Below are positions 36,437 to 54,888 of a DNA stretch of 64,000 bases, piece by piece. This DNA is from Candidatus Hermodarchaeum yapensis (lineage in GTDB: Archaea > Asgardarchaeota > Hermodarchaeia > Hermodarchaeales > Hermodarchaeaceae), in assembly GCA_016840405.1 (NCBI GenBank), contig JAEOSK010000001.1, forward strand, positions 40,952 through 104,951, written 5' to 3'. A model generated the notes under the pieces. The model saw only the letters and a list, made by a program, of their open reading frames with translations, was not told the origin of the DNA and did no database searches. Every line of letters begins with the position of its first letter. Position 1 is the stretch's first letter. The translations under genes were made by a program, and so were the position numbers.

Positions 36437-37282
36437 CTAAGGGTCGTGCGGCAACGCTCCAAGCAGACCTCCAACAACAGGGCTGCCGAGTGATCTTTTA
36501 CTTTGAACTTCGTCCGGCAGTTGTTGGCGACCTTCACCACGATCTATAGCTTCTGGATTCGATTCTGCCTTATCTTCTGCTACCGCTGCTTTTGCCCTCC
36601 TAGCACGACGGCGGATGATAATGCGGTAAAGAATGAAAACCACTAAGAAGACGATTAAAAGGACAAGGATTAGGGTTTCGAAAAGATCTATCATCTCTGC
36701 TAAATTTTGCCATCCTACCCCAATTACCCATCCTAAAAGACCAAGAATCAGATATCGAGGAAGCGCACCCAAGAAGGTGAAAAACGCAAACCGTTTTGCA
36801 TCCGCCCGCAGAGCTCCATAGAGCACTGAGACAACGGAAAGCGGGATAATGGGGACAGCTCGGGCCGTGAATAAGTAGATTTCATCACGGGAAGAAGCCT
36901 CCATGTTTTTGCGCATATACTCAATTTCTTCAATAGAAGTTCCTAGATATTTACCATACCGTTCGATGATTGGATAACCACCGAAGTAGGCAATGCCATA
37001 ACCGAAAAATGATCCGATGGTTGCCGCAAGAGCCCCAACTAGCATCACACTAAACAGGATTACAAAGATGGACTCCAGAGGCGTTAACTCAAAGGTTAGG
37101 ATGAATCCCGCTGCCATCGGAACAAGTGGCGATGGAATGGGAGCAATGAATGTTTCAATCATAACACCAAAGAACACGCCTACTGGGCCCAATGCAGTGA
37201 CCCATGAAATAAGAATCCAAATGATACTTTCTACCCACACATCAAACGCATGTAACCAGGCGATAATTACGTCAATAATCAA
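36437..37282 (-). CDS. DedA/VTT(TVP38)-family membrane protein with basic C-terminal tail
   Basis: LYGALRADAKRFAFFTFLGALPRYLILGLLGW motif region, 5-6 TM. Confidence 0.5.
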   Translation of the reverse strand: MIIDVIIAWLHAFDVWVESIIWILISWVTALGPVGVFFGVMIETFIAPIPSPLVPMAAGFILTFELTPLESIFVILFSVMLVGALAATIGSFFGYGIAYFGGYPIIERYGKYLGTSIEEIEYMRKNMEASSRDEIYLFTARAVPIIPLSVVSVLYGALRADAKRFAFFTFLGALPRYLILGLLGWVIGVGWQNLAEMIDLFETLILVLLIVFLVVFILYRIIIRRRARRAKAAVAEDKAESNPEAIDRGEGRQQLPDEVQSKRSLGSPVVGGLLGALPHDP

Positions 37283-37325
37283 TCTTAGCTCTCCTTAGAT
37301 ACGAGCGCTGGGTATTGTTTGGTTT

Positions 37326-37682
37326 TTATTCACCAGGATGCTTACTCATTATGTCTTCCCGAGACAGAAACTCGGGATCATCGACGATGGCAATACTACC
37401 ATAGCGTCCCGCGGAAAGTTCCATCTCGCCACGAAACGTTTTGATAAAACCATTTTCAACCTCGACGATTACACCTTCATCAACTTTGTCGATGTCATCA
37501 TTCCACAGGGACAATTTGATTGTACCTGTTTCATCTCCCGCTTGGGCCGTGGTAACACGTGCCTTTCCATATCGTGTTTGCACATCTCGAACCGGCTCTA
37601 ATGTCAAGATACGTAAACGAATGTCAACACGACGCGATGCAGACGTTAGTTCATGAACTTTCATTTTCTGAAAAACCTTCAT
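37326..37682 (-). CDS. OB-fold single-stranded nucleic-acid-binding protein (RPA/SSB-like)
   Basis: 118 aa, GDETGTIKLSLW...VENGFIK...GEMELSAGRYG beta-rich OB pattern. Confidence 0.5.
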   Translation of the reverse strand: MKVFQKMKVHELTSASRRVDIRLRILTLEPVRDVQTRYGKARVTTAQAGDETGTIKLSLWNDDIDKVDEGVIVEVENGFIKTFRGEMELSAGRYGSIAIVDDPEFLSREDIMSKHPGE

Positions 37683-37746
37683 AACAGGAATTTACCAAGG
37701 ATGTACTAATGCACACTTTTAAAAATTGTAGGGTAACAGGTTTTTC

Positions 37747-39489
37747 GTGAGACGAAGTGAATTTTGCATGCCTTCACCCACGCCGTTTAACAAACTTGCT
37801 GAAGTGTCTGAAAAAATCTTGGCGACTACAAAACGCCTGGAAAAAATGGATGCTGCAGGTTCCTTCCTCTCAAACGCTCATCCTGATGAGATAGAAGCCG
37901 CTTCGCTTCTTCTGATTGGCCGTCCATTTCCACGGACTAGTCAACGGACATTAGACCTTGATTGGTCAGCGCTATACAAGGTTCTTCAAGAGTTACTGCA
38001 ACCGTCTTCCGAATTAATCAGTGAGTTGTTTGCACAGTCAGGTGACATTGGTGAGGTGGTTCACCAATTGTTCCTGCGTTCAGGGAAAATTCGACAAACA
38101 ACACTTTTCACTGTGCCTTTATACGTTCAAGAGGTATATTCCATATTCACAGAAATCGCTGATGTTCAGGGTCCAGGGTCACGAAAACGAAAAACAGCAC
38201 TTCTACGGTCACTATTCACTCGCGCCACACCACTTGAAGCAAAGTATCTAGCCAAAATTTTGGTGGGTGACCAACGGATTGGGTTTAGTGAAGGGATGCT
38301 TGAAAGCACAATTGCGCGAAAGTTAGACCTCTCTCTCGATTTGGTCCGTCGGGCGAACATGCTGAGAGGTAACATTGGTGAGGTTGCACAAATTGCATTC
38401 ACCGAGGGTGTTGAAGGTCTTGAAAAGGTCGAATTACGCCCCTTTACTCCGCTCCTACCCATGCTTGCTTCTCAAGCTGAAAATGCTGAGAATGCCCTTC
38501 AAACACATGATGGAACATCTGCGTTTGAAACGAAAATTGATGGGGCTCGAGTTCAAATTCACATGCAACATCAAAATGACACACACCAGATACGGATTTA
38601 CAGCAAACGACTCACTGAAGTCACACCCAGCTTCCCTGATCTCGTTGAGCTTGTTGAACGAGAAGTGAAAACACAAAGCTGTATTCTTGAAGGTGAAGTT
38701 CTAGCGATGGATGCACAAGGACGACCTTATCCCTTTCAACACTTAATGCGACGATTCCGACGTGTACGTAATGTCGAAGAAATGATGGCTGAATTACCTG
38801 TAACCCTGTTTCTCTTCGATTTATTGATGATAGATGGTAAAGTGCTCATTGATACACTCTACACCAGTCGACGCGAAAAACTAGACAAAGTACGGGGGAC
38901 AATACCCTTAGTCGATCAATTGGTGTCCTCTAAAGTGGATGAAGTATCGGCTTTCTTTGACAAGGCCATTGAAGCTGGGCACGAGGGACTCGTAGCGAAA
39001 AGGCTCGACAGCACCTATCAGCCCGGTATCCGAGGTAAAGCTTGGCTGAAAATTAAACGGAGTATGGAAACCTTAGATTTAGTAATTATTGCTGCCGAGT
39101 GGGGAACCGGTCGGAGACATAAATGGCTCAGCGATTACCACCTAGCGGCTCAAGATCCAGAAACAGGCGAATATCATATGTTGGGAAAAACGTTCAAAGG
39201 TCTAACTGATGCTGAATTTGCAGAGATCACCCAACGGCTTTTAGAGCTGAAAATTGAACAAACGCGAGGAACCGTTAGGGTTCAACCACGAATTGTCGTT
39301 GAAGTCGAATATGATGAGATTCAACGAAGCCCAACGTATCAATCCGGTATGGCCCTTCGGTTCGCACGAATCAAACGCCTTCGCTACGATAAAGGTCCAG
39401 AGGACGCAGATACCATACACCGGGTTCAAGCATTATATGACTCCCAGTTCTCTAGGAAAGCCTCATCAGATCTCGTAGGCCGAAGCTAA
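37747..39489 (+). CDS. lig: ATP-dependent DNA ligase (start probably at Met8, ~37768)
   Basis: adenylation motif KIDGARVQIH (KxDG), 580 aa archaeal ligase architecture. Confidence 0.85.
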   Translation: MRRSEFCMPSPTPFNKLAEVSEKILATTKRLEKMDAAGSFLSNAHPDEIEAASLLLIGRPFPRTSQRTLDLDWSALYKVLQELLQPSSELISELFAQSGDIGEVVHQLFLRSGKIRQTTLFTVPLYVQEVYSIFTEIADVQGPGSRKRKTALLRSLFTRATPLEAKYLAKILVGDQRIGFSEGMLESTIARKLDLSLDLVRRANMLRGNIGEVAQIAFTEGVEGLEKVELRPFTPLLPMLASQAENAENALQTHDGTSAFETKIDGARVQIHMQHQNDTHQIRIYSKRLTEVTPSFPDLVELVEREVKTQSCILEGEVLAMDAQGRPYPFQHLMRRFRRVRNVEEMMAELPVTLFLFDLLMIDGKVLIDTLYTSRREKLDKVRGTIPLVDQLVSSKVDEVSAFFDKAIEAGHEGLVAKRLDSTYQPGIRGKAWLKIKRSMETLDLVIIAAEWGTGRRHKWLSDYHLAAQDPETGEYHMLGKTFKGLTDAEFAEITQRLLELKIEQTRGTVRVQPRIVVEVEYDEIQRSPTYQSGMALRFARIKRLRYDKGPEDADTIHRVQALYDSQFSRKASSDLVGRS

Positions 39490-39505: not shown

Positions 39506-42500
39506 TTAGCTCCGAAGACGGATTTCTTGAGAAGCCGAAATCCATCGAGGTCCAAGCGTTCGGTTAAAGAGTGAAATGTAACTAGCTTGATCACTAACCA
39601 CGGCAACAATTTCACCCTGGTCCACTGCTGTTGGAGCAATAAGGACTTCTTCACCATCACGTGATCCTCCATAAAATTTCATTACAGGATTATCCCAAAT
39701 TCGGATATTCCCTTGTTGGAGGAGTTTCTTCGCGCTTGTCTTATGTTTATCACCATCAAGAGTAGTAATTATATGAACACGACTTTGGGGCTTGACCTTA
39801 CTCAGTTCATCGATTGGCACTTCCTCAAAGGAAGGATACACCAACGTGACTGTCTCGTTGACACGTCGAAACATTTCCAACAGATGGTTCTGAACACCCT
39901 CACAGGTTACTACTATGCCAGTTCGTTCGACCTCAGCGAGTTGAAGAGTAGAAAGCGTTTCCCATAAACCAGCTAGGATTTGTTCAGTACCAGTGGCTTG
40001 GTTCCGGAGGCGCTCTAGGATGGGCTCTGTTTTCATCGAAAAGAGCTGCAATGTATTAACTGATGTGGTTTCTGCTGATTTTGCTTTAGATGTAATTTCT
40101 TTGGCAAGAGTTTGGTATTCGGTTTTCAGAGTTTGTCGCTCTTTGCTCAATGTCCGGCTTATCCTTCTCCCCGTTTGTTGTGTCTGAGCAACCAATCCTT
40201 CTTCTGCGGTTTCTGTGATTTGTTGTACCGCCGCTAGAATATTACTACTCCTTTGATTAATATCGGTCAATGCGGTCTCTTCGAATTGTTGCATCACCTC
40301 ATTCGTATGACGAATATTATCTTGGGTGGCACGAGCCAACCGGGTCTTAATCAAATCGAGGGATTTTGCATGGCTTTGAAGGCTTTGTTCAATATCCTGG
40401 CCAAATGCTGTTTTGAGTTTCTCATTGTCTTCATCGATAGCTTGACTTGTATCAGAAATAATTTTGCTTAGCTCTCTTTGAGAGCCAGAAAGTGTCGATG
40501 TGCTCAACTCAATAAGCTGATCTAGGGTTGCATTTACGCTATTACCTAAAGCGGATAACTTCTCTCGTAGCTGGTCTGACAGAGTGTTGGTGTGTGTAGT
40601 CAAACTACTCTGTTGAGCCTGAATTATCTCCGCACCTTTTGATACGGTTTGATTTTTGGTTTCTTCTAACACCATTTCAATTTGTTCGCTTGTAAGAACA
40701 GATCCTTCCTTTCCTTCTTCAGCAATTTGTGTCAGTTGATCGATTAATTGAGTTTGAATCGTATTAAGCTCTTCAACAAAGGATTGAAACACAGATGAAC
40801 TCTCTTTACTAAGTGATGCTTGTTGGTCATCAATAGCAGTTAGCAAATTCACTTTATTCATTTCAAGCAGTTTACTTGATTCTGTGTTAATCGTTTCACT
40901 AGTGCTTCCAATTGCCTCAACCAGTTTGGAAGCAACAGTTTGTAATTGTACAAGCTCCTGCTGGAGAGTAGACACATAGTCTTCAGTTTCATCCAAAAGT
41001 GCAGTAGCAAAGGTTCCTAAGTGTTTATCAATTGCATTTCGTTGCTCATCAATTTTCGAAGCACAAGTTTGCCCAATATTCTCAATTATGTCCTGGGTAC
41101 TAGTAATTTGGTTTTGATCAAAATTCTTTAGTTGGGTTTGAATTTCAGAAATTGTCGCAGTCACAGTCGCACTTTGTTCACGGATTAGGTCTCGCATGTG
41201 ATCAACTATGTCTTCTGCGCGTTTGGTTTGTGATTCTGATTCGTTTTGAACGCTTTCCACAAATTTGTCAGCTGTTTGACGAATTGCAGAAAGGTTGGAG
41301 TCAGTTGCTGTTTCAATCTCGTCTGACATTGTCTCCATTTTTTGCGTCAAGATGGTTTCTTGAGCGCTAATATCCTCGACTAATCCTTCCAGTAGAGTTT
41401 CTGTTTCATTAAGCTGGGCAAGGCAATCTTCTTGCATTTCATTGATTCCCTGAGTAAGTTGTTCATTGAATCCTGTTTTCTCGCGTTCAAAGGCTTGAGC
41501 TGTGGCTGTCAGTAAATTCCCTGCATCATCTCCAAAATTCGCGAGCGTCGTGGAAACATTCACCGTTGCTTGATCAACAGCCGAACCAATAGCTGTATTA
41601 AGGGCATTAAGATTCGCTGCGATATTAGACGAATAGTCATCCATTATCTTGGTAATGGGCAGCCAATAACGATCAACTCGTGTTTTCACACGCGTATCAT
41701 ACTTTTCAAGAGCCTCACCTAGCTTAGTTTCAAGGGCTTGAATTGTGGAGCTTACAGGAGGCGCCTGAGTATCTTGATATTCTCGGAGTTTTTCTGACAA
41801 TTGAGTTCGAAGACGTTTATCTAAGCTATTTTGAAACGCAGTATTTGCTTGAACTTCCAGATCTGCATAACTGTTTGTGAGGGTTGTTTGATAGTTTTCT
41901 ACTGCTGTGCTGGAACCTTTCTTCACAAGGTTGGTAAGTGTAATTTTCAAGTCATTGCTGTAATTAGCATAGAGTAGCTGTTCATGAAGGGATCTGAGTT
42001 TGGTTGCGATGTTTTTCGCATAGTCTTTTTGTTGTTTTTCAAGAATAGATTGATAATCAACGAAGATTGACTGGGGAGTAATGACCTGGCTGTGAAGATG
42101 CTGTTCAGCTAATCCTGGGAGTAGTTCTTGAGGGAGTTGTTGCAGGGTCGAAAGTGTTTCTTCAAATATTGTTGAAATTTGTGATTCCCGGTCAGTTTGA
42201 TTGCGGAGTTTCTCTCGAAATTCATCCAAAATGACAGTTAATTCGTTTGTGAGTTTATCACGAACCATCTTCTTCTCTTTTGGTAAAAGGGTCTTTGGAA
42301 GGGCAAGAACTCGGTTCACGGTTTTTTGGAATAGGGTGTCTATTTGTTTTTCTCGCTTAATCTGCCGTGATACTTTCGTTTTACAATTACGAAGATTGGC
42401 AGTTATCTGAGTTGAGAATTCTTCGTTTATTAACTCGATGAGCTTTTGGGTTTGCTCATCTTGTATTGTATTGAATTCTTCACGGGTCTTTTTGAAAATT

Positions 42501-44893
42501 GTATCAGATTGTTTGTTGAAAGCTGCGTATTGTTTTGCAGTAAAGTCTTGAAATGCTGTCAAGAGTGTATCAAGTTGTGTTTTTATGCTCAAGATGATTT
42601 TCTTGTTAATTCTCTTGAGTGCAGCTTTTGTTACTTGCTTTCTTCCAGCTAATTGGGCGGTTTTGGCTGCTTGCTTTTCCAAGGTTGTTTGTTTGTTTTT
42701 CAGTGTGGTCTTGTAACCATCTAAGGCTGCTAGGGCATTTGGAGGTATTATTTCTGAAAGAGAGGTAGTTAGACCATTGATTACTTTTAGATCTCTGTTG
42801 GTTAACTGAGTTGAATGGGATTGAACGGCCTTAGCAATCGCTGCTTCTCGTTTATCTTGAATTTCAATAATTGAGGGCTGAAACTCTGCAATTGCGGTTT
42901 CAACTTTGGCAATCTGTTCCTGTCTTAAACGGGTTGCAGTGGTTTCAACACCATCAGAGTATTGTTTCACAATATTTTCAAGTTGGGAAAATTCCCTTTG
43001 CAACTCTGAGGTTGATGTGTTCGTGATTTTATTCAAGGCTGCTTTAAATGTACGCAGCTGTTTATCTACAATTTGTTGAGTCTTGGTGGCTTTAGTGATA
43101 TTTTCTGCTGCTGCCTGTTTAACTGCCTTCTGGGTTTGTCTAATCCTGTCTTGAGCATATTGACCGATTTGATCCTTAGTTGTTTTTAGGCTAACAAGCA
43201 CAACGTTTCTTTCTTGGTTTACCAGTTTTTGGACCCGTTTACTAAGAGTACGACTCTGTTCTTCTTGTAATGCAATTTTCGATTGGAAATCGGTGAGAAA
43301 CGATTCAGTAGTTTTTTGGGCAGTTGTCAACCGTCGTTTTAGCCGTTTTCCAATCTGGCCTCCCATGGATTTGAAATTCTTTTGCAGAGTGGTTTGTGTT
43401 GCAGCAAAATTCTTGATTATTGATTGGAGGAGAGTGCGTACTTCAAGAAGGTGGGAAAGGTAAGCATCCCTCATTTCGATACCTAAACCTTCACTGGCGG
43501 CCTCAAGGATTTGTTCATGTTCTAATTTCACTTGTTCTGTAAGCGCGGCTAAATCAAATTTGATTTTTGAGAACTGATTAAACGTGAGTGCAGAAGGTGG
43601 CCATTGAGCAATAGTTGTGCTCGCTTCTTTATGCAACCCTTGGAATCCCCGGCTAGTGGTTTCAAATGACTTCTGCAACTCTTGAAAGAGGGAATTAGTG
43701 ATTTGAACAGAAGTTTTTCGGGAGGTATTTATTGTAGTTTCCATTTCAGTTGCGGTTTTATTTGCTCTCTGTGTTAAACGGCGGCCATCTTTCTTCAGCG
43801 CCTTCTCCATTTGTACTACAGTTTCATTCAATGCCTGGGTTCGTCGCGTCCAAACATCAAAAACTTGAGTGTTGATATCTTGAATGCTCTTTGAGAGGGT
43901 TTTTTCAATGCCTGCTTGAAAAGTTTTGAGGGCTTGTTGTGATTCTTGACTATAGGTGTCGATTTTGCTTGTAAGATCAATAGCAGTTTCGTCTGTAATT
44001 TCTGATGTACCTTCTTTTTGTGTCGTAATTCCTGCTGATAATGTCTTGAGGGTGGAATCAACACTTCTCTGGTAAACGGAGTCGGCGTCTTCAAGGTGTG
44101 ATTTCACTTGTTGGGTACAGGTATCCGCTTGATTGAGTACACGGTCTGCAATTGTTGTGGTCCATTGTTCTGTTTCCTCTCTGTGAGTTTCCATCGCCTT
44201 GTTGGCATCGTCCAAAGCTAGTTTCTGGGTGTCCTCGAATTGCTTTTTTCCCTCTCCTATTGTTTGTTTAAGAGATTGTTGCAGAGCAATTGTTTGATTT
44301 GATAGTTCATCGGTGCTTGAAGCAGAAAGATTGGTCAAAGCTTTTTGAAGGTTTTCAGAAACATTGCTCAAAACAATATTTGTGGTCATCGCGGCTTCAT
44401 TCAATGCAATTCCCTGTCGCTCATTCAGATGTTCCAAGGATGAACGGATCTGTCTGGTCATGGACTGTAATTCGCTGTGTATCTCGTCTGTGGTTTTGTT
44501 TTGAAGTTTTTGTAATTCTTTCCATGACGCCCGAGTTTCCTTAGAAAATGCTTGAACTTCATTAGCTAGTTCCTTATAGGGTGCAAAAGCTCGGTAACGA
44601 GCAACCACGCCGGGGAGCGGTTTGACCAACTGTTTCTTCACGAGTGCGGCGATTGTACTCTCGACTTTGACTAGAGGAACGCCTGAATAGAGACTTATTT
44701 CTCCGGGTGTTAGTCGGCCCATAATTAGCAAAGCCGTGTATACTCGGCTCTGTGGCTCAGAAAGTTTAAATTGGACCTGCAATGCTAAAAGCAAGTCCGG
44801 AGAAATCTCAATTGGTGCTGGGCACTGTGGAGAACTTGCCTTCTCCCTTTCTGGGGCTGGAGGGGGGTTAGAATTACCTTCTTGTGGCGTCAT
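39506..44893 (-). CDS. giant (1795 aa) coiled-coil protein with N-terminal TrmB-like winged-helix domain and ~130-aa C-terminal globular domain
   Basis: N-term LSEPQSRVYTALLIMGRLTPGEISLYSGVPLVKVESTIAALVKKQLV = TrmB-type HTH; ~1500 aa of Q/T/E/K-rich heptads; no Walker motifs. Confidence 0.8.
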   Translation of the reverse strand: MTPQEGNSNPPPAPEREKASSPQCPAPIEISPDLLLALQVQFKLSEPQSRVYTALLIMGRLTPGEISLYSGVPLVKVESTIAALVKKQLVKPLPGVVARYRAFAPYKELANEVQAFSKETRASWKELQKLQNKTTDEIHSELQSMTRQIRSSLEHLNERQGIALNEAAMTTNIVLSNVSENLQKALTNLSASSTDELSNQTIALQQSLKQTIGEGKKQFEDTQKLALDDANKAMETHREETEQWTTTIADRVLNQADTCTQQVKSHLEDADSVYQRSVDSTLKTLSAGITTQKEGTSEITDETAIDLTSKIDTYSQESQQALKTFQAGIEKTLSKSIQDINTQVFDVWTRRTQALNETVVQMEKALKKDGRRLTQRANKTATEMETTINTSRKTSVQITNSLFQELQKSFETTSRGFQGLHKEASTTIAQWPPSALTFNQFSKIKFDLAALTEQVKLEHEQILEAASEGLGIEMRDAYLSHLLEVRTLLQSIIKNFAATQTTLQKNFKSMGGQIGKRLKRRLTTAQKTTESFLTDFQSKIALQEEQSRTLSKRVQKLVNQERNVVLVSLKTTKDQIGQYAQDRIRQTQKAVKQAAAENITKATKTQQIVDKQLRTFKAALNKITNTSTSELQREFSQLENIVKQYSDGVETTATRLRQEQIAKVETAIAEFQPSIIEIQDKREAAIAKAVQSHSTQLTNRDLKVINGLTTSLSEIIPPNALAALDGYKTTLKNKQTTLEKQAAKTAQLAGRKQVTKAALKRINKKIILSIKTQLDTLLTAFQDFTAKQYAAFNKQSDTIFKKTREEFNTIQDEQTQKLIELINEEFSTQITANLRNCKTKVSRQIKREKQIDTLFQKTVNRVLALPKTLLPKEKKMVRDKLTNELTVILDEFREKLRNQTDRESQISTIFEETLSTLQQLPQELLPGLAEQHLHSQVITPQSIFVDYQSILEKQQKDYAKNIATKLRSLHEQLLYANYSNDLKITLTNLVKKGSSTAVENYQTTLTNSYADLEVQANTAFQNSLDKRLRTQLSEKLREYQDTQAPPVSSTIQALETKLGEALEKYDTRVKTRVDRYWLPITKIMDDYSSNIAANLNALNTAIGSAVDQATVNVSTTLANFGDDAGNLLTATAQAFEREKTGFNEQLTQGINEMQEDCLAQLNETETLLEGLVEDISAQETILTQKMETMSDEIETATDSNLSAIRQTADKFVESVQNESESQTKRAEDIVDHMRDLIREQSATVTATISEIQTQLKNFDQNQITSTQDIIENIGQTCASKIDEQRNAIDKHLGTFATALLDETEDYVSTLQQELVQLQTVASKLVEAIGSTSETINTESSKLLEMNKVNLLTAIDDQQASLSKESSSVFQSFVEELNTIQTQLIDQLTQIAEEGKEGSVLTSEQIEMVLEETKNQTVSKGAEIIQAQQSSLTTHTNTLSDQLREKLSALGNSVNATLDQLIELSTSTLSGSQRELSKIISDTSQAIDEDNEKLKTAFGQDIEQSLQSHAKSLDLIKTRLARATQDNIRHTNEVMQQFEETALTDINQRSSNILAAVQQITETAEEGLVAQTQQTGRRISRTLSKERQTLKTEYQTLAKEITSKAKSAETTSVNTLQLFSMKTEPILERLRNQATGTEQILAGLWETLSTLQLAEVERTGIVVTCEGVQNHLLEMFRRVNETVTLVYPSFEEVPIDELSKVKPQSRVHIITTLDGDKHKTSAKKLLQQGNIRIWDNPVMKFYGGSRDGEEVLIAPTAVDQGEIVAVVSDQASYISLFNRTLGPRWISASQEIRLRS

Positions 44894-48085: not shown

Positions 48086-50152
48086 TTGAAAAACCCTAAC
48101 TTGACAGGTGGAATTCGTGAAATGACGCTCACCAACGATGATGAATTAATTTACACGTCTGACGAACTTGAATTTCGTTCACATGTGCGTGAATTTGTAA
48201 ATCGTGAAATCAAGCCCTTGGTCAAGCAGATTGAAGAAAGGAATTTCGATTATCGTGGGTTTTTCAAAAAAATCGCTGACGCTGGGTTTTCAGGGTTGTT
48301 ACTTCCCGAAAAGTATGGTGGGTCCAACAAGTCCTTGATGTATCAACTTATTGCAGGGGAAGAAATCTCAGCTGTATCGCCATCTGCCTTGATGATGTTC
48401 GGAGCAAGTTGCATGTTGAGTGCAGTTCCTATACTCCGATTTGGCTCAGATGAGCTAAAACAGCGATACCTTGTTCCCTTAGCCAAAGGTGAATCGATTG
48501 GGGCTTTAGCAGTAACAGAACCTGCTGTGGGAAGTGATACTGCTGGAATGGAGACTCGCGCTGTTTGGAGTGAAAAGGAGAACTGTTGGATTCTCAATGG
48601 TGAAAAACGCTATATCACTAATGGGAGCATCGCTGACCAAATCATAGTCTTCGCAATTACTGATCCCAAAGTTGACAGCAAAAGTGGAATGTCTGCATTC
48701 ATCATCGAATCAGCATGGAAAGGATTCTCTGTGGAAAGAGATTATTCACTGATGGGACGGGGAGGAAGTTACGCATCACATATCCGATTTGAAAACCTGA
48801 AAGTGCCCAAAGAAAATCTACTCGGTAAGCTCAACCAAGGCTTTCTCATCCTTATGGATGAATTAGATACAGAAAGGATCGGTATTGCCGCTGAAGCACT
48901 CGGTTGTATGCGAACTCCCTTCGAAATCGCTGTCACTTATTCACAAGAACGTGTTCAATTTGACCGACCCATCTCTCGATTCGAAGGAATATCTTTCAAA
49001 GTTGCAGACATGGCCACCAAAATGCGTGCGGCCCGGCTCCTAATCGTGGCTGCAGCCCGAATGGTTGATCAAGGACTCCCCTGCACTAAAGAAGCCACCA
49101 TGGCAAAACTCTTTGCTACCGAAGCAGCCGTCGAAGTGTGTGATCTCGCCATCCAAATCTGTGGTGGCGCAGGGTATGTCAAAGACTACTTCCCCTTGGA
49201 GCAGTTCTACCGCGATGCTCGTCTTGGAACCATTGGTGGTGGCACATCCGAAATCATGCGGTTTCTCATTCAACGAGAAGTGTATATTGAAGACAAACGC
49301 AGTAAAGCCCGGGCACAGGTCATGCCAGAGGTAGAAGAACTTGACTTCGATACACTCATGACAGCAATTCCGAATGGCTTTCGTTCTGAACGCGCCGAAG
49401 GTGTAACCGCTAAAATTCAGTTCCTTTTTCCTGATCAAACCCCTTGGCTGATATCAATCAAGGATCAAGAGTGCAGTATCAAAAAGAAACAAATCAAAAA
49501 TCCAACAATGACCGTGAAAACCGATTCTAATACGTGGAGAAGTATCCTTCTTGGGAAGCTTGATGCCATGCAAGCGATGACGACAAGCAAAATCGTCATT
49601 GACACTGATGATATGGATTTATTATTGAAATTTGCCCGCATGTTTCGGTTCACACCCGAAATCCTTCAAGATATCACTGCTAAATCCATACGCCCTCCGA
49701 AAACACCAGATAGAAGCGAATCAGAATTTAAGCTAGGTAAGAGCCTGAATGAAATCAAAATCGGCGAGAAGGCACAAGGATCAATGAAGGTTACAGCCGA
49801 GCATATTGAATGGTACGCCAAACTATCAGGTGACTATAATCCTCTCCATTTCAACGACGATTATGCCGCTACGACTATCTTTGGTCGACGAATCGCACAT
49901 GGTCCAATTGGAGGCGCCCTAGTCGCTCAAATTCTTGGCATGCAATTACCGGGCTTGGGCACACTGGCTTACAATATGAAGGTGAATTTCACTGCTCCTG
50001 TTTTTCCGGGGGATGAAATCACTGCCATAGTCGAAGCCACAGAAAAAGTGCCAAAGAAAAACCTGCTCCGACTTAGCTTCAATGTAGTAAATCAAAATGG
50101 ACTCGAAGTGATGAACGGCTACGCTAATGTTCTCCCACCACTCAAAGAGTAG
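48086..50152 (+). CDS. tri-domain fusion: acyl-CoA dehydrogenase + SCP2 sterol-carrier domain + MaoC-like (R)-hydratase hot-dog domain
   Basis: ACAD motifs IQICGGAGY and GTSEIMR; SCP2-like KIQFLFPDQ...KIVIDTDDMDLLLKF; MaoC motif YNPLHFNDDYAATTIFGRRIAHG. Confidence 0.7.
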   Translation: MKNPNLTGGIREMTLTNDDELIYTSDELEFRSHVREFVNREIKPLVKQIEERNFDYRGFFKKIADAGFSGLLLPEKYGGSNKSLMYQLIAGEEISAVSPSALMMFGASCMLSAVPILRFGSDELKQRYLVPLAKGESIGALAVTEPAVGSDTAGMETRAVWSEKENCWILNGEKRYITNGSIADQIIVFAITDPKVDSKSGMSAFIIESAWKGFSVERDYSLMGRGGSYASHIRFENLKVPKENLLGKLNQGFLILMDELDTERIGIAAEALGCMRTPFEIAVTYSQERVQFDRPISRFEGISFKVADMATKMRAARLLIVAAARMVDQGLPCTKEATMAKLFATEAAVEVCDLAIQICGGAGYVKDYFPLEQFYRDARLGTIGGGTSEIMRFLIQREVYIEDKRSKARAQVMPEVEELDFDTLMTAIPNGFRSERAEGVTAKIQFLFPDQTPWLISIKDQECSIKKKQIKNPTMTVKTDSNTWRSILLGKLDAMQAMTTSKIVIDTDDMDLLLKFARMFRFTPEILQDITAKSIRPPKTPDRSESEFKLGKSLNEIKIGEKAQGSMKVTAEHIEWYAKLSGDYNPLHFNDDYAATTIFGRRIAHGPIGGALVAQILGMQLPGLGTLAYNMKVNFTAPVFPGDEITAIVEATEKVPKKNLLRLSFNVVNQNGLEVMNGYANVLPPLKE

Positions 50153-53002: not shown

Positions 53003-53548
53003 GTGGAAGACGAAGGCATCATGCTCAAACTCGTCATCGCAGGCGAAGGCGGTGTGGGCAAAACCACAATGGTCCGACGATACGTCGAAGGCACATACCA
53101 CGATTCAATTCTTACCGTAGGCGCTGCTTTTGCGGCAAAGCGATTAATTGTGAATAATAGTAGGGAGCAGACGGGTGTTAAATTACAGATTTGGGATTTT
53201 GGTGGGGAGAAGCGGTTTCGGTTTTTATTGCCGAAGTTTTGCCTTGGGGCGCGTGGGGCGATGCTTGCCTTTGATTTGAATCGGTTTAGTACGTTTTTGA
53301 AGCTTGATCAGTGGCTTGAGCTTATCCGGGATAACACCGAAGAGATTCCCGTCGTGTTAATCGGGATGAAGGCGGATTTGCAGCGGGCGATTGAACAAAA
53401 GGAAGTTGTCAATTTCGCGAAGACCCATAACTTGAAAGCATATTTTGAGACGAGTTCAAAGGATGATTTGAATGTCACTCCTGCCTTTGAGTATATTGCA
53501 AAAGAAATGCTGGAGTATGTCCAGCAACGCGTCAATAAATCCGCATAG
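53003..53548 (+). CDS. stand-alone small Ras/Rab-like GTPase with divergent G3 (DFGGE) and G4 (MKAD) motifs
   Basis: G1 GEGGVGKTT, G3 WDFGGEKRF (Gln replaced by Glu), G4 GMKADL (Asn replaced by Met). Confidence 0.7.
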   Translation: MEDEGIMLKLVIAGEGGVGKTTMVRRYVEGTYHDSILTVGAAFAAKRLIVNNSREQTGVKLQIWDFGGEKRFRFLLPKFCLGARGAMLAFDLNRFSTFLKLDQWLELIRDNTEEIPVVLIGMKADLQRAIEQKEVVNFAKTHNLKAYFETSSKDDLNVTPAFEYIAKEMLEYVQQRVNKSA

Positions 53549-53694: not shown

Positions 53695-54888
53695 ACCGGG
53701 CTCCGTCGCACCAACACAGTAACCCTCACACCCTCCGCCTCCCAACACCTACACCTCCTGCAGCTGGCCGAAGAGTGCGCCAGACTCTGGAACGAACTCA
53801 CCTACTGACGCCGCCAAGCATTTTTCCGTGGAAAAATCACCTGGGAGTGGCAGGACCTCTACGACGCCTACAAAGGTGATGTGGGCTCGGCCACCGCCCA
53901 ACAGATTGAACGCAAGAACAGTGAGGCCTGGCGTTCATTCTTCGCCCTCCTCTGATTAAAAACGAAGGGACGACTTCCATCCCATATCAACTGCGTAGGT
54001 CCACCGGGCTACTGGAAGTATCGTCGCACCAATACACGGAAGCTCATCATTATCTTTCGCTGTGATTCCTATCGATTTGACGAGGGCATATTATATCTCC
54101 CCAAAAAATTGACTGTTAAATGGCAGGGGAAGCCCAAATGGGTGGGTTGGACCAAACAGGGTCAGCTAACCATCCACTATGATAATGTTACTGGCAAGTG
54201 GTATGCCCGTCAACCAGTGGAGGTTGAACCTCCCCATCAACCGCTCTCGCATCGGAGAGCCTTTGTTGGCCTGGGCGTGATTAATTTGCTGACCGTTGCC
54301 CTGGATGGTGCGTGGCAAACGTTGGTCTACAGTGGGCGTTCGGTCTTGGCGGATTGGTGGTATCTCTCTCATCGGATTGATCGGTTGAAGTCTCTAGCAA
54401 AGACGATAAACCATCGGAAATCAACGCATCGGATCCGTCGGTTATTTCGTCGTCGTCTGCGGTTACGCCAGTATGTGAATACGGTGGTTCGTCGGGCGGT
54501 AGCTGATTTGTGGGCGCACGGTGTGTCGCAGCTGGTGGTAGGGGATCTCACTGGGATTCTGGCGGTAAAAAGTGGTGGGCGGAAGGCTCATGCGATGACA
54601 CATAATTGCTGGAGTCATCGGTATCTTATGCAACGGATCACGGAGGTGGCAGAAGAATATGGTATTGTGGTGGAACGGGTGGATGAGCGGGGCACTTCAA
54701 GTAAGTGTCCACGCTGTCGGTCGAAGCGAGTAACACGACTAGGTCGCCTGTTCAAATGCCAGGAGTGTAGATTAGAAGCTCATCGAGATGGTGTGGGCGT
54801 AGTCAACATAGGGCTTGCTCAAGGCGCAGCGTTCCCTGGGGAAGTCGTTAACGGGGCAGTGGCATGCCCTTTGGAGGTCAGTGGATGA
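53695..54888 (+). pseudogene. tnpB: TnpB (IS200/IS605 OrfB)-like gene interrupted by in-frame TGA codons (53806, 53953) with degenerate RuvC motifs
   Basis: LAEECARLWNELTY*RRQAFF...EAWRSFFALL*LKTKG...PPGYWK... C-term CPRCRSK...CQECRLEAHRDGVGVVNI zinc finger/RuvC-III; ORF track only calls 54109-54888 from TTG. Confidence 0.55.

Follow-up and report, generated by a model that had tools for sequence, protein, structure and literature searches.

A giant Asgard archaeal relative of TrmB and TrmBL2 with a length-constrained hendecad rod and a possible architectural role on DNA

RESULTS

The gene and its product

The DNA analyzed here is a window of 64,000 nucleotides from the Asgard archaeon Candidatus Hermodarchaeum yapensis (contig JAEOSK010000001.1). 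On its minus strand, between a convergent DNA ligase gene and genes for an aminotransferase and an aldehyde dehydrogenase, lies a single open reading frame (ORF) coding for a protein of 1,795 amino acids (aa), called the giant protein in the following. The protein is composed of an N-terminal winged-helix head, a very long helical rod and a C-terminal globular tail (Table 1), and our analyses suggest that it is a relative of TrmB and TrmBL2 in which the two halves of the rod pack against each other in antiparallel orientation. Both the 1,795-aa product and its place between the ligase and the metabolic genes had been described in an initial annotation made from the sequence alone, and both are as it stated.

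The 1,795-residue ORF is a real gene. Its listing and translation gave an ATG start and no internal stop, and contigs of three assemblies that are independent of each other (NCBI, ENA, and JGI), 39, 94, and 172 kb in length, code for an identical 1,795-aa protein. A word-indexed search returned 26 homologues, mostly of 1,788 to 1,814 aa and down to 32% identical. Twenty-one full-length relatives of 1,788 to 1,814 aa align with the giant protein collinearly from end to end, and M1 is invariant across the aligned orthologues. An assembly or gene-calling artefact, i.e., a chimera or a fused ORF, thus has a negligible probability, in view of the identical products, the collinear orthologues with their shared synteny and the invariant start methionine, and no point in its support was found; the chimera against which the initial annotation had cautioned did not appear.

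The product is rich in T, L, Q, E, S, A, and K, in keeping with the Q/T/E/K richness noted earlier, and has cysteines at positions 24, 259, 837, 1157, 1277, and 1664. The protein contains no Walker A motif (GxxxxGK[ST], also in a relaxed form), no Walker B motif (hhhhD[DE]), and no CxxC motif. Membership in the SMC (structural maintenance of chromosomes) or Rad50 families was rejected on the lack of Walker motifs and of any SMC match in Pfam or NCBIfam, in line with the initial annotation. The G+C content at third codon positions of the gene is 0.346, compared with 0.347 to 0.418 in five neighboring genes, and, for each amino acid, it uses synonymous codons in practically the same way as they do. 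The lower G+C content of the gene is accounted for by the amino-acid composition of its product. The claim that its A/T-ending codon usage differs from that of its neighbors thus did not hold, and a foreign origin on the basis of codon usage was dismissed.

The head

Residues 38 to 105 matched the Pfam family PF01978 with 36.6 bits in the context of the whole protein and with 44 bits when the N-terminus was analyzed in isolation (cutoff, 25.6). The best matches of the head among solved structures were TrmBL2 (PDB 5bpd; E = 5e-7) and TrmB (3qph; E = 1.4e-3). The N-terminal domain is thus a helix-turn-helix domain, and specifically the TrmB-type winged helix that had been proposed. Length variation among the orthologues, whose alignment comprised 22 sequences and 1,820 columns, is found mostly in the proline-rich leader that precedes the domain (aa 9 to 18).

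The wing, 'LPGVVxRYRAFAP', is almost invariant, including R99 and R101, and the region from aa 30 to 110 is basic, with an isoelectric point (pI) of 9.8. Tyr50-Asp51 of TrmB matter for DNA recognition (PMC4158304); they are aligned to E78-S79 of the giant protein, where column 78 is variable (K6 E5 R3 Q2 P2 and others) and column 79 is mostly Ser across the family. We infer that the conserved basic wing may bind DNA with little sequence specificity.

The rod

The coiled-coil register starts at aa ~101 to 106, directly after the 'AFAPY' of the head. The hydrophobic power spectrum of aa 131 to 1640 had one sharp peak at 3.67 residues (= 11/3), with a power of 7.8 compared with a maximum of 1.8 in 200 shuffles and 0.19 at a period of 3.5. 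All 150-residue windows from position 101 to ~1600 peaked at 3.61 to 3.82 residues, and the family-averaged normalized power at the hendecad period was 50. Hydrophobic residues occupy three hendecad positions, a, d/e, and h, and form a narrow stripe of the kind that hendecad coiled coils usually have. Where the initial annotation had described about 1,500 aa of uninterrupted heptads, the very long helical rod was thus borne out, but its repeat is the hendecad and it is not uninterrupted, as the register breaks at three places: at W431-P432-P433, at ~717 to 745, and at ~950 to 1010. Averaged over the 22 orthologues, the register also drifts between aa 750 and 945. The PP motif of the first break recurs at 432-433 and 429-430, respectively, of two shorter relatives, P0033 and P0036. 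In the C-arm joint (aa 1034 to 1079), P1045, W1077, and P1079 are invariant, and this joint mirrors that of the N arm (aa 673 to 717). The arms of the 1,795-aa protein differ in charge, with a basic N arm (pI 9.4) facing an acidic C arm (pI 4.6) in the proposed pairing; the average arm charges in its clade are +3 and -33, respectively.

Across aa ~30 to 1759, the orthologue alignment contains four indels, all of a single residue and each present in one to three sequences; one extra inserted column, at ~1760 inside the C-terminal domain, is due to a single sequence. As a control, the adjacent DNA ligase was compared among four related genomes, three of which carry giant orthologues of 1,792 to 1,794 aa. 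The ligases are 62 to 75% identical and have 1 to 2 indel events in 580 aa. Given the few indels in spite of identities down to 32%, the rod evolves fast in sequence but hardly in length.

Mirror symmetry of the rod

Conservation along the rod is mirror symmetric. Smoothed conservation at position i correlated with that at position S - i only near S = 1748 to 1750 (r = 0.70 to 0.81). After high-pass filtering, which removed trends longer than 100 to 200 residues, the mirror correlation was r = 0.50, with a z of 3.6 that exceeded all rotation and parallel-orientation controls. Compensatory charge covariation was computed for 700 S values, with ~700 residue pairs contributing to each; S = 1751 ranked first (z = -3.5) and S = 1749 third (z = -3.1). 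The smoothed minimum was at S = 1748, and the blocks from 300 to 430 and from 434 to 600 each gave the same top S. Scans for volume and hydrophobicity covariation revealed no peak, and static charge complementarity gave no clear peak.

Pairs in which both residues are conserved were most numerous at S = 1746 to 1757, with 26 to 28 pairs compared with a mean of 9.1 (standard deviation, 3.7), and the sub-peaks were spaced by one helical turn. These pairs include the invariant or near-invariant residues R847/R902 and Q850/Q899, both with a sum of 1749. Conserved helix breakers also face each other: P673/P1079, P717/P1034, G648/G1103, and G471/G1274. As 1749 is the sum of P105, the last residue of the winged helix, and W1644, the start of the tail, the rod would be paired over its whole length, end to end.

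An AlphaFold2 model of aa 560 to 1189, built with a 14-sequence alignment, was entirely helical (predicted local distance difference test [pLDDT], 72.7; predicted template modeling score [pTM], 0.32). Its helix breaks are at 713-715, 752-755, 844-847, 864, 870-874, 898-902, 978, and 1041-1050; the break at 870-874 lies at the mirror center, and those at 844-847/898-902 and 713-715/1041-1050 are mirror counterparts. The best PDB matches of this model in Foldseek, all of them nonsignificant, were mostly antiparallel coiled-coil arms, namely, those of Rad50, condensin Smc, MukB with its elbow, the cohesin elbow, Smc5/6, JetC, and chemoreceptors. A proline or glycine is present within aa 864 to 876 in 20 of the 22 orthologues, at varying positions, against a background of 0.34, and only 16 stretches of the rod have such conserved breakers. 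This modestly favors a real turn at the center, i.e., a hairpin.

The mirror symmetry about residue ~875 suggests that the halves of the rod (aa ~106 to 869 and ~875 to 1643) pack antiparallel, with residue i facing roughly residue 1749 - i. Such packing could take place within one chain, giving a hairpin of ~113 nm, or between two chains, giving an antiparallel homodimer of ~228 nm; the hairpin is slightly favored, and the homodimer is a tentative second possibility. In either case, the arrangement would differ from the ~200-nm rod with head and tail at opposite ends envisaged in the initial annotation.

A direct repeat of ~55 residues (five hendecads) was observed across the rod center, at aa 845 to 956. 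Its copies, REKQIDTLFQKTVNRVLALPKTLLP... and RESQISTIFEETLSTLQQLPQELLP..., share the pattern 'REKQIDTLF...LP' / 'RESQISTIF...LP', 55 aa apart. The first copy alone is predicted to form the tip, and the second carries the conserved P921.

Natural length variants

P0033 (1,122 aa) is encoded in synteny with the giant gene and was, for this reason, considered an orthologue with a shorter rod; P0036 (1,408 aa) is the next closest relative. Deletions were mapped with HMMER, BLAST, and a custom alignment, and a MAFFT alignment in which P0033 was misaligned was not used. Each of the two proteins differs from the giant protein by one central deletion that spans the mirror center, placed by HMMER at ~482 to 1156 (P0033) and ~656 to 1045 (P0036). 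As the rod is repetitive, the position of the deletion boundary is a plateau: symmetric boundaries (y1 + y2 ~ 1746 to 1761) scored 18 to 22 units below the best (~1,530 to 1,590). Central, roughly symmetric deletions fit a putatively paired rod that was shortened from its middle, as would be expected. A search with P0033 as the query returned P0033 itself only.

The tail

The tail, of about 155 aa (aa ~1640 to 1795), is the most conserved part of the protein in the 22-sequence alignment. A C-terminal globular domain had been noted in the initial annotation, which put its size at ~130 aa. A profile of the tail searched against 1.84 billion cluster representatives found 275 proteins, in almost all of which the domain is C-terminal, and matched the Thorarchaeota protein P0099 with an E of 2e-14. 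Three Thorarchaeota proteins, namely, P0099 itself and, from its 90% cluster, P0187 and P0188, scored 28.6 to 29.6 bits on PF11495 (Regulator_TrmB; cutoff, 22.2) over profile positions 3 to 122 of 233. Three more relatives scored below the threshold, and the relatives cover only positions 3 to 122(136) of the 233. NCBI names P0187 and P0188 'TrmB family transcriptional regulator sugar-binding domain-containing'. By transitive homology, i.e., through the match of the tail profile to P0099 and the matches of the P0099 cluster to PF11495, the tail is assigned to the first subdomain of the TrmB effector domain.

The protein ends after this subdomain, and the second one with its sugar-binding Gly/Glu is absent. 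In Pyrococcus furiosus TrmB, these conserved residues of the second subdomain are G320 and E326 (PMC4158304). Since the second subdomain is missing, the protein is TrmBL2-like rather than TrmB-like.

The AlphaFold2 model of the tail has a beta-alpha-beta fold, and Foldseek gave weak, nonsignificant matches of this model to Zucchini, PLD3, TrmBL2, and the TrmB sugar-binding domain (2f5t). Catalysis of the phospholipase D (PLD) type was rejected, given the weakness of the Zucchini and PLD3 fold matches and the absence of an HxKxxxxD (HKD) motif anywhere in the protein. A weak PDB profile match of the tail to peroxiredoxin (E = 0.003) was regarded as due to chance, and a word-indexed search with the tail profile returned short fragments only. 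A few relatives, among them P0135 (508 aa) and P0149 (879 aa), carry the TrmB-like C-domain at an internal position (aa 128 to 281 and 398 to 557, respectively). P0135 has zinc-ribbon/C2H2-like motifs after it, and the head-rod-tail plan thus has further domain variants.

The wider Asgard family

A winged helix and a C-terminal domain were both present in 105 of the 173 sequences collected, so that the combination of a TrmB-type helix-turn-helix with a giant coiled coil, for which the initial annotation had suggested a search, recurs. The rods of the 105 proteins span 84 to 1,669 residues, nearly all with a period of 3.62 to 3.70, and their lengths cluster at about 520, 580, 690, 732, 846, 1061, and 1515 residues. 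Class '732' has zero gap columns at 44% identity, and class '846' has 4 gap and 7 insert columns at 29% identity.

The mirror test was applied to these classes, and in three of them the conservation peak again lay at the center of the rod, more weakly so in class '846'. In class '732' the peak was at S = 946 to 947 (expected, ~959), with r = 0.68 (z = 3.6); S = 947 ranked second of 683 values, and the adjacent S = 946 ranked top. Class '690' peaked at S = 853 to 855 (expected, 864), with an r of 0.67, top of 637. The peak of class '846' was at S = 1013 (expected, 1017; r = 0.42), seventh of 795, with a slightly stronger cluster near S = 845.

Organism names were looked up for about 30 clusters. 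The named long-rod members are all from Asgard archaea (Hermod-, Hel-, Thor-, Frey-, Njord-, Sigyn-, Borr-, and Promethearchaeota). One cluster member has a Korarchaeota label as well, and a member of 249 aa is labeled Thermoproteota. Family members are annotated as 'sugar-specific transcriptional regulator TrmB' (JGI), 'helix-turn-helix domain-containing protein', or 'hypothetical', labels that hide the head-rod-tail architecture. Full-text literature searches returned no description of this architecture or family. The giant protein thus represents a single length class within a large Asgard family that is apparently undescribed. Its domains are already known; the novelty lies in their being joined to a giant hendecad rod that is length-locked and mirror symmetric, and in the spread of length classes among Asgard archaea.

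For P0060 (1,307 aa), a 290-aa gene without a Pfam match lies 16 bp upstream on the same strand in two independent contigs (L023, 7113-7985; L024, 151-1023). It may be an operon partner for this length class.

Genomic neighborhood

The giant gene and the DNA ligase gene converge, with stop codons 16 bp apart, and the genes for the aminotransferase (class V) and the aldehyde dehydrogenase lie upstream of the giant gene on the same strand (Table 1). Orthologous loci, down to 32% identity, and the P0033 locus have in common the aminotransferase, the ligase, the SSB-like protein, the VTT protein, the ORF of 94 to 96 aa, RNase HII, the protein of ~490 to 534 aa, and the Arf-like GTPase. The ligase, SSB-like, VTT, and RNase HII genes next to the giant gene (35513-39489), a cluster of replication and repair genes, also keep their order in orthologous loci at which the giant protein is down to 32% identical. 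No second member of the family is encoded within the window.

Table 1. Features of the giant gene and of its surroundings; positions are those of the 64,000-nucleotide window
Feature	Residues	Position	Strand	Basis or remark
Whole ORF	1-1795 plus stop codon (39506-39508)	39506..44893	minus	Translation; identical copies; full-length orthologues
Pro-rich N-terminal leader	1-29	44807..44893	minus	14 prolines in first 100 aa; M1 invariant
TrmB-type winged helix-turn-helix	30-105	44579..44806	minus	PF01978; PDB matches; wing conservation
Rod, N arm	106-869	42287..44578	minus	Hendecad coiled coil; register coherent over aa 101-415 and 431-715
W431-P432-P433 break, N arm	431-433	43595..43603	minus	Invariant; phase jump at 420-433
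N-arm joint	673-717	42743..42877	minus	Conserved P673 and P717; AlphaFold helix break 713-715
Tip module (predicted)	844-902	42188..42364	minus	Centered on mirror point ~874.5; AlphaFold breaks, paired residues
C-arm joint	1034-1079	41657..41794	minus	Conserved P1034, P1045, W1077, and P1079; AlphaFold break 1041-1050
Rod, C arm	875-1643	39965..42271	minus	Hendecad coiled coil; register coherent over aa ~1014-1640
C-terminal alpha/beta domain	1644-1795	39509..39964	minus	Assigned to first subdomain of TrmB effector domain, TrmBL2-like
ATP-dependent DNA ligase		37747-39489	plus	Adjoins giant gene
SSB-like OB-fold protein		37326-37682	minus	
VTT/DedA-like membrane protein		36437-37282	minus	
94-aa ORF			opposite to VTT gene	Overlaps VTT gene; 94-96 aa across loci
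RNase HII		35513-36178	minus	
532-aa protein		33895-35493		No Pfam match; ~490-534 aa across loci
Arf/Ras/Roc-family small GTPase, 289 aa		32828-33697	plus	Kept in conserved synteny
~305-aa protein		31889-32806		No Pfam match; beside gene for 289-aa GTPase
Arf/Ras/Roc-family small GTPase		53003-53548	plus	

Three observations concern other genes of the window. The Arf-like GTPases encoded at 32828-33697 and 53003-53548 are eukaryote-like signature proteins typical of Asgard genomes. A 259-aa ORF at 54109-54888 on the plus strand, with OrfB_IS605 and Cas12f1-like TNB domains, codes for a TnpB-type transposon-associated nuclease, possibly truncated; loci L001 and L002 have a TnpB-type ORF of about 250 aa at the same position. 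Finally, a 688-aa ORF at 48086-50152 on the plus strand is an unusual multidomain beta-oxidation fusion of acyl-CoA dehydrogenase, SCP2, and MaoC-dehydratase; the MaoC part is absent from the most distant syntenic locus, L006 (532 aa).

DISCUSSION

We consider it somewhat better than an even chance (probability of about 0.55) that the giant protein is a relative of TrmB and TrmBL2 whose linker helix has grown into an antiparallel hendecad rod and which has an architectural role on DNA. In the proposed scheme, the single amphipathic linker helix of TrmB would have expanded about fortyfold, to about 1,500 to 1,540 residues of hendecad coiled coil, and would join the winged-helix domain to the first effector subdomain. 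As a hairpin, the protein would measure ~113 nm; winged helix and C-domain would form a joint TrmBL2-like head at its base, and its tip, at aa 870 to 874, would be plain helix. It would thus have the topology of SMC, Rad50, and MukB without the ATPase. As a dimer of ~228 nm, it would carry at each end a winged helix and a C-domain from different chains, and its rod would correspond to a lengthened form of the antiparallel coiled coil seen in Sso10a and in the TrmB dimer. The antiparallel design would be a natural elaboration, since the TrmB linkers and Sso10a are already antiparallel. A length-locked, rigid rod might serve as a spacer, an arm or a bridge between DNA segments, or between DNA and another structure, and the rods of the family would range from ~12 to ~250 nm. 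That the role is architectural rather than enzymatic is suggested by the family membership, the conserved basic wing and the strict length constraint.

Several observations weigh against this reading. The recognition-helix Tyr50(-Asp51) of TrmB is without a counterpart in the alignment of the giant family, which bears on DNA binding. The tail, scanned directly against Pfam and NCBIfam, had no match, and its AlphaFold2 model is of low confidence (pLDDT, 60). Antiparallel packing draws on statistics (z of ~3.5 to 5, from 22 related sequences) and on the model with a pTM of 0.32, whose best Foldseek match had an E of 2.5e-3 and a template modeling score of ~0.13. The hendecad phase is continuous through the center of the rod, two orthologues have neither P nor G there, and the best-scoring deletion boundaries are 112 (P0033) and 48 (P0036) residues off symmetry. 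In the wider family, the mirror test gave no signal in classes '1061', '580', and '520', which are probably heterogeneous or badly aligned, and oppositely charged arms are not general. Two more distant members lie in unrelated gene contexts, so that the link of the giant gene to replication and repair genes may only reflect genome relatedness. Moreover, the present data fit both of the antiparallel topologies, hairpin and dimer.

A first alternative, essentially the picture of the initial annotation, is a parallel homodimeric rod of ~228 nm with both winged helices at one end and both C-domains at the opposite end, by which DNA would be tethered to a partner far away. Members of the TrmB family dimerize on DNA with their two recognition helices side by side (PMC4158304), an arrangement that a parallel dimer would keep, and the unbroken phase at the rod center and the two orthologues lacking a central P or G would be compatible with it. 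However, conservation is mirror symmetric about ~875, charge covariation peaks at i + j = 1749 to 1751, helix breakers are paired between the halves, the AlphaFold2 model breaks at 870-874 and resembles SMC-like arms, the deletions of P0033 and P0036 are both central, and the linker coiled coil of TrmB itself is antiparallel. As none of these six features is expected for in-register parallel pairing, we regard the parallel dimer as unlikely.

A cytoskeletal or scaffold filament, similar to intermediate filaments and with end domains used for protein-protein assembly, is improbable to a similar degree. The very long, regular rod, whose sequence evolves fast while its pattern is kept, is what such a filament would have, the DNA-contact tyrosine of TrmB is not conserved, the C-domain is better conserved than the winged helix, and Asgard archaea have elaborate cytoskeletons (PMC10869688). 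Against it, R99 and R101 in the wing are almost invariant and the domain has a pI of 9.8, the closest solved relative of the head is the chromatin protein TrmBL2, and the sequence carries no sign of head-to-tail polymerization. The initial annotation had proposed a chromosome-tethering or cytoskeletal scaffold; a structural or DNA-tethering role is still the most reasonable reading.

More doubtful still is a conventional, ligand-sensing TrmB regulator of the neighboring metabolic genes, in which the rod would be incidental. Membership in the TrmB family, the JGI label on relatives of the giant protein, and the location of the gene downstream of codirectional aminotransferase and aldehyde dehydrogenase genes would be in line with it. 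Yet, like TrmBL2, the protein lacks the sugar-binding second subdomain (G320/E326), the family has not kept the recognition tyrosine, and the distant family members examined sit in unrelated contexts. An incidental rod, moreover, is unlikely to be held to four single-residue indels at 32% identity. Least probable of these alternatives is an amphipathic helix that binds lipids or membrane surfaces like apolipoproteins, perilipins or LEA proteins, which would account for the 11/3 periodicity and for the match of PF01442 (Apolipoprotein A1/A4/E) to four stretches of the giant protein (47.3 bits) and to most relatives, but that score is far from the Pfam cutoff of 90 and is explained by the 11-residue period only, the hydrophobic stripe (~3 of 11 positions) is narrow rather than a broad lipid-binding face, prolines do not punctuate the sequence every 11 or 22 residues, and mirror symmetry and charge covariation point to helix-helix packing.

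Returning to the antiparallel rod, a bolder proposal, which we hold to be doubtful, is that the family consists of ATP-independent, length-locked 'molecular ruler' proteins of Asgard archaea, with TrmBL2-type heads on antiparallel hendecad rods. If so, the nucleoid might be organized, or tethered to other cell structures, at set distances, and a passive counterpart of SMC arms would have arisen from the stretched linker helix of a transcription factor. If the rods are fixed-length DNA bridges or arms, they would represent a new class of chromosome-architectural proteins in the closest prokaryotic relatives of eukaryotes, whose chromatin and cell biology are as yet only partly understood. The family is in addition a natural series, with the same head and tail on rods of 84 to ~1,670 residues and almost no indels within classes. 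It bears on hendecad folding, on the register of antiparallel arms, and on the evolution of a transcription-factor linker into an element of 100 to 200 nm.

Among known proteins, TrmBL2 of the Thermococcales (TK0471/PF0496; PDB 5bpd) is a close parallel. Like the giant protein as assigned here, it consists of a winged helix, an amphipathic coiled coil and the first effector subdomain only, and it is both the best structure match of the head and among the weak fold matches of the tail. It is a nonspecific chromatin protein with a general DNA-architectural function rather than a specific regulator (PMC4158304). TrmBL2 has 264 aa and a linker of a few tens of residues, whereas the linker of the giant protein is a hendecad rod of ~1,540 residues. 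The comparison is further limited by the nonconserved DNA-contact Tyr50, by a tail that is below the Pfam and NCBIfam thresholds, and by the Asgard origin of the giant protein. In TrmB, an amphipathic dimerizing helix follows the winged helix; the helix of the giant protein is likewise placed but about 40 times longer.

The linker helices of the TrmB dimer pair F81 with I91' and F84 with L88', i.e., they are antiparallel (PMC4158304). Sso10a of Sulfolobus (PDB 1R7J) is a dimer in which an antiparallel coiled coil holds one winged helix at either end; Sso10a1 can both bend and bridge DNA, apparently regardless of its sequence (PMC4941522). In both, winged helices are joined by an antiparallel two-stranded coiled coil, as we propose for the giant protein; Sso10a is likened to it by architecture. 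The coils of Sso10a and TrmB measure a few nanometers and keep the DNA-binding domains close, whereas those of the giant protein would be ~228 nm apart in a dimer, or folded back in a hairpin.

The arms of SMC, Rad50, and MukB are long intramolecular antiparallel coils that unite N- and C-terminal globular parts, as in the hairpin model. Their conserved interruptions (elbows or joints) lie opposite one another in the two strands, as those of the giant protein would. The length of SMC arms is also under constraint. These proteins differ from the giant protein by their Walker A/B ATPase head, by a hinge domain or CxxC zinc hook at the apex in place of a short helical tip, by arms of ~50 nm compared with ~113 nm, and by mainly heptad repeats; there is no sequence homology. 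The cytoplasmic hairpin of methyl-accepting chemotaxis proteins is another long antiparallel helical hairpin, and chemoreceptors are among the weak fold matches of the giant protein. Chemoreceptor hairpins come in discrete length classes; indels are nearly absent among members of one class, and lengths change symmetrically from one class to another. Unlike the giant protein, they have unrelated end domains, are heptad based and membrane anchored, serve in signaling, and share no sequence homology with it.

The 11/3 periodicity of the rod is common to the 11-mer repeats of apolipoproteins, to tetrabrachion and to the peripheral stalks of rotary ATPases, which are hendecad coiled coils. Apolipoproteins differ by the subthreshold PF01442 match and by the narrow hydrophobic stripe of the giant protein. 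Peripheral stalks and tetrabrachion reach tens of nanometers at most, and the giant protein would be far longer.

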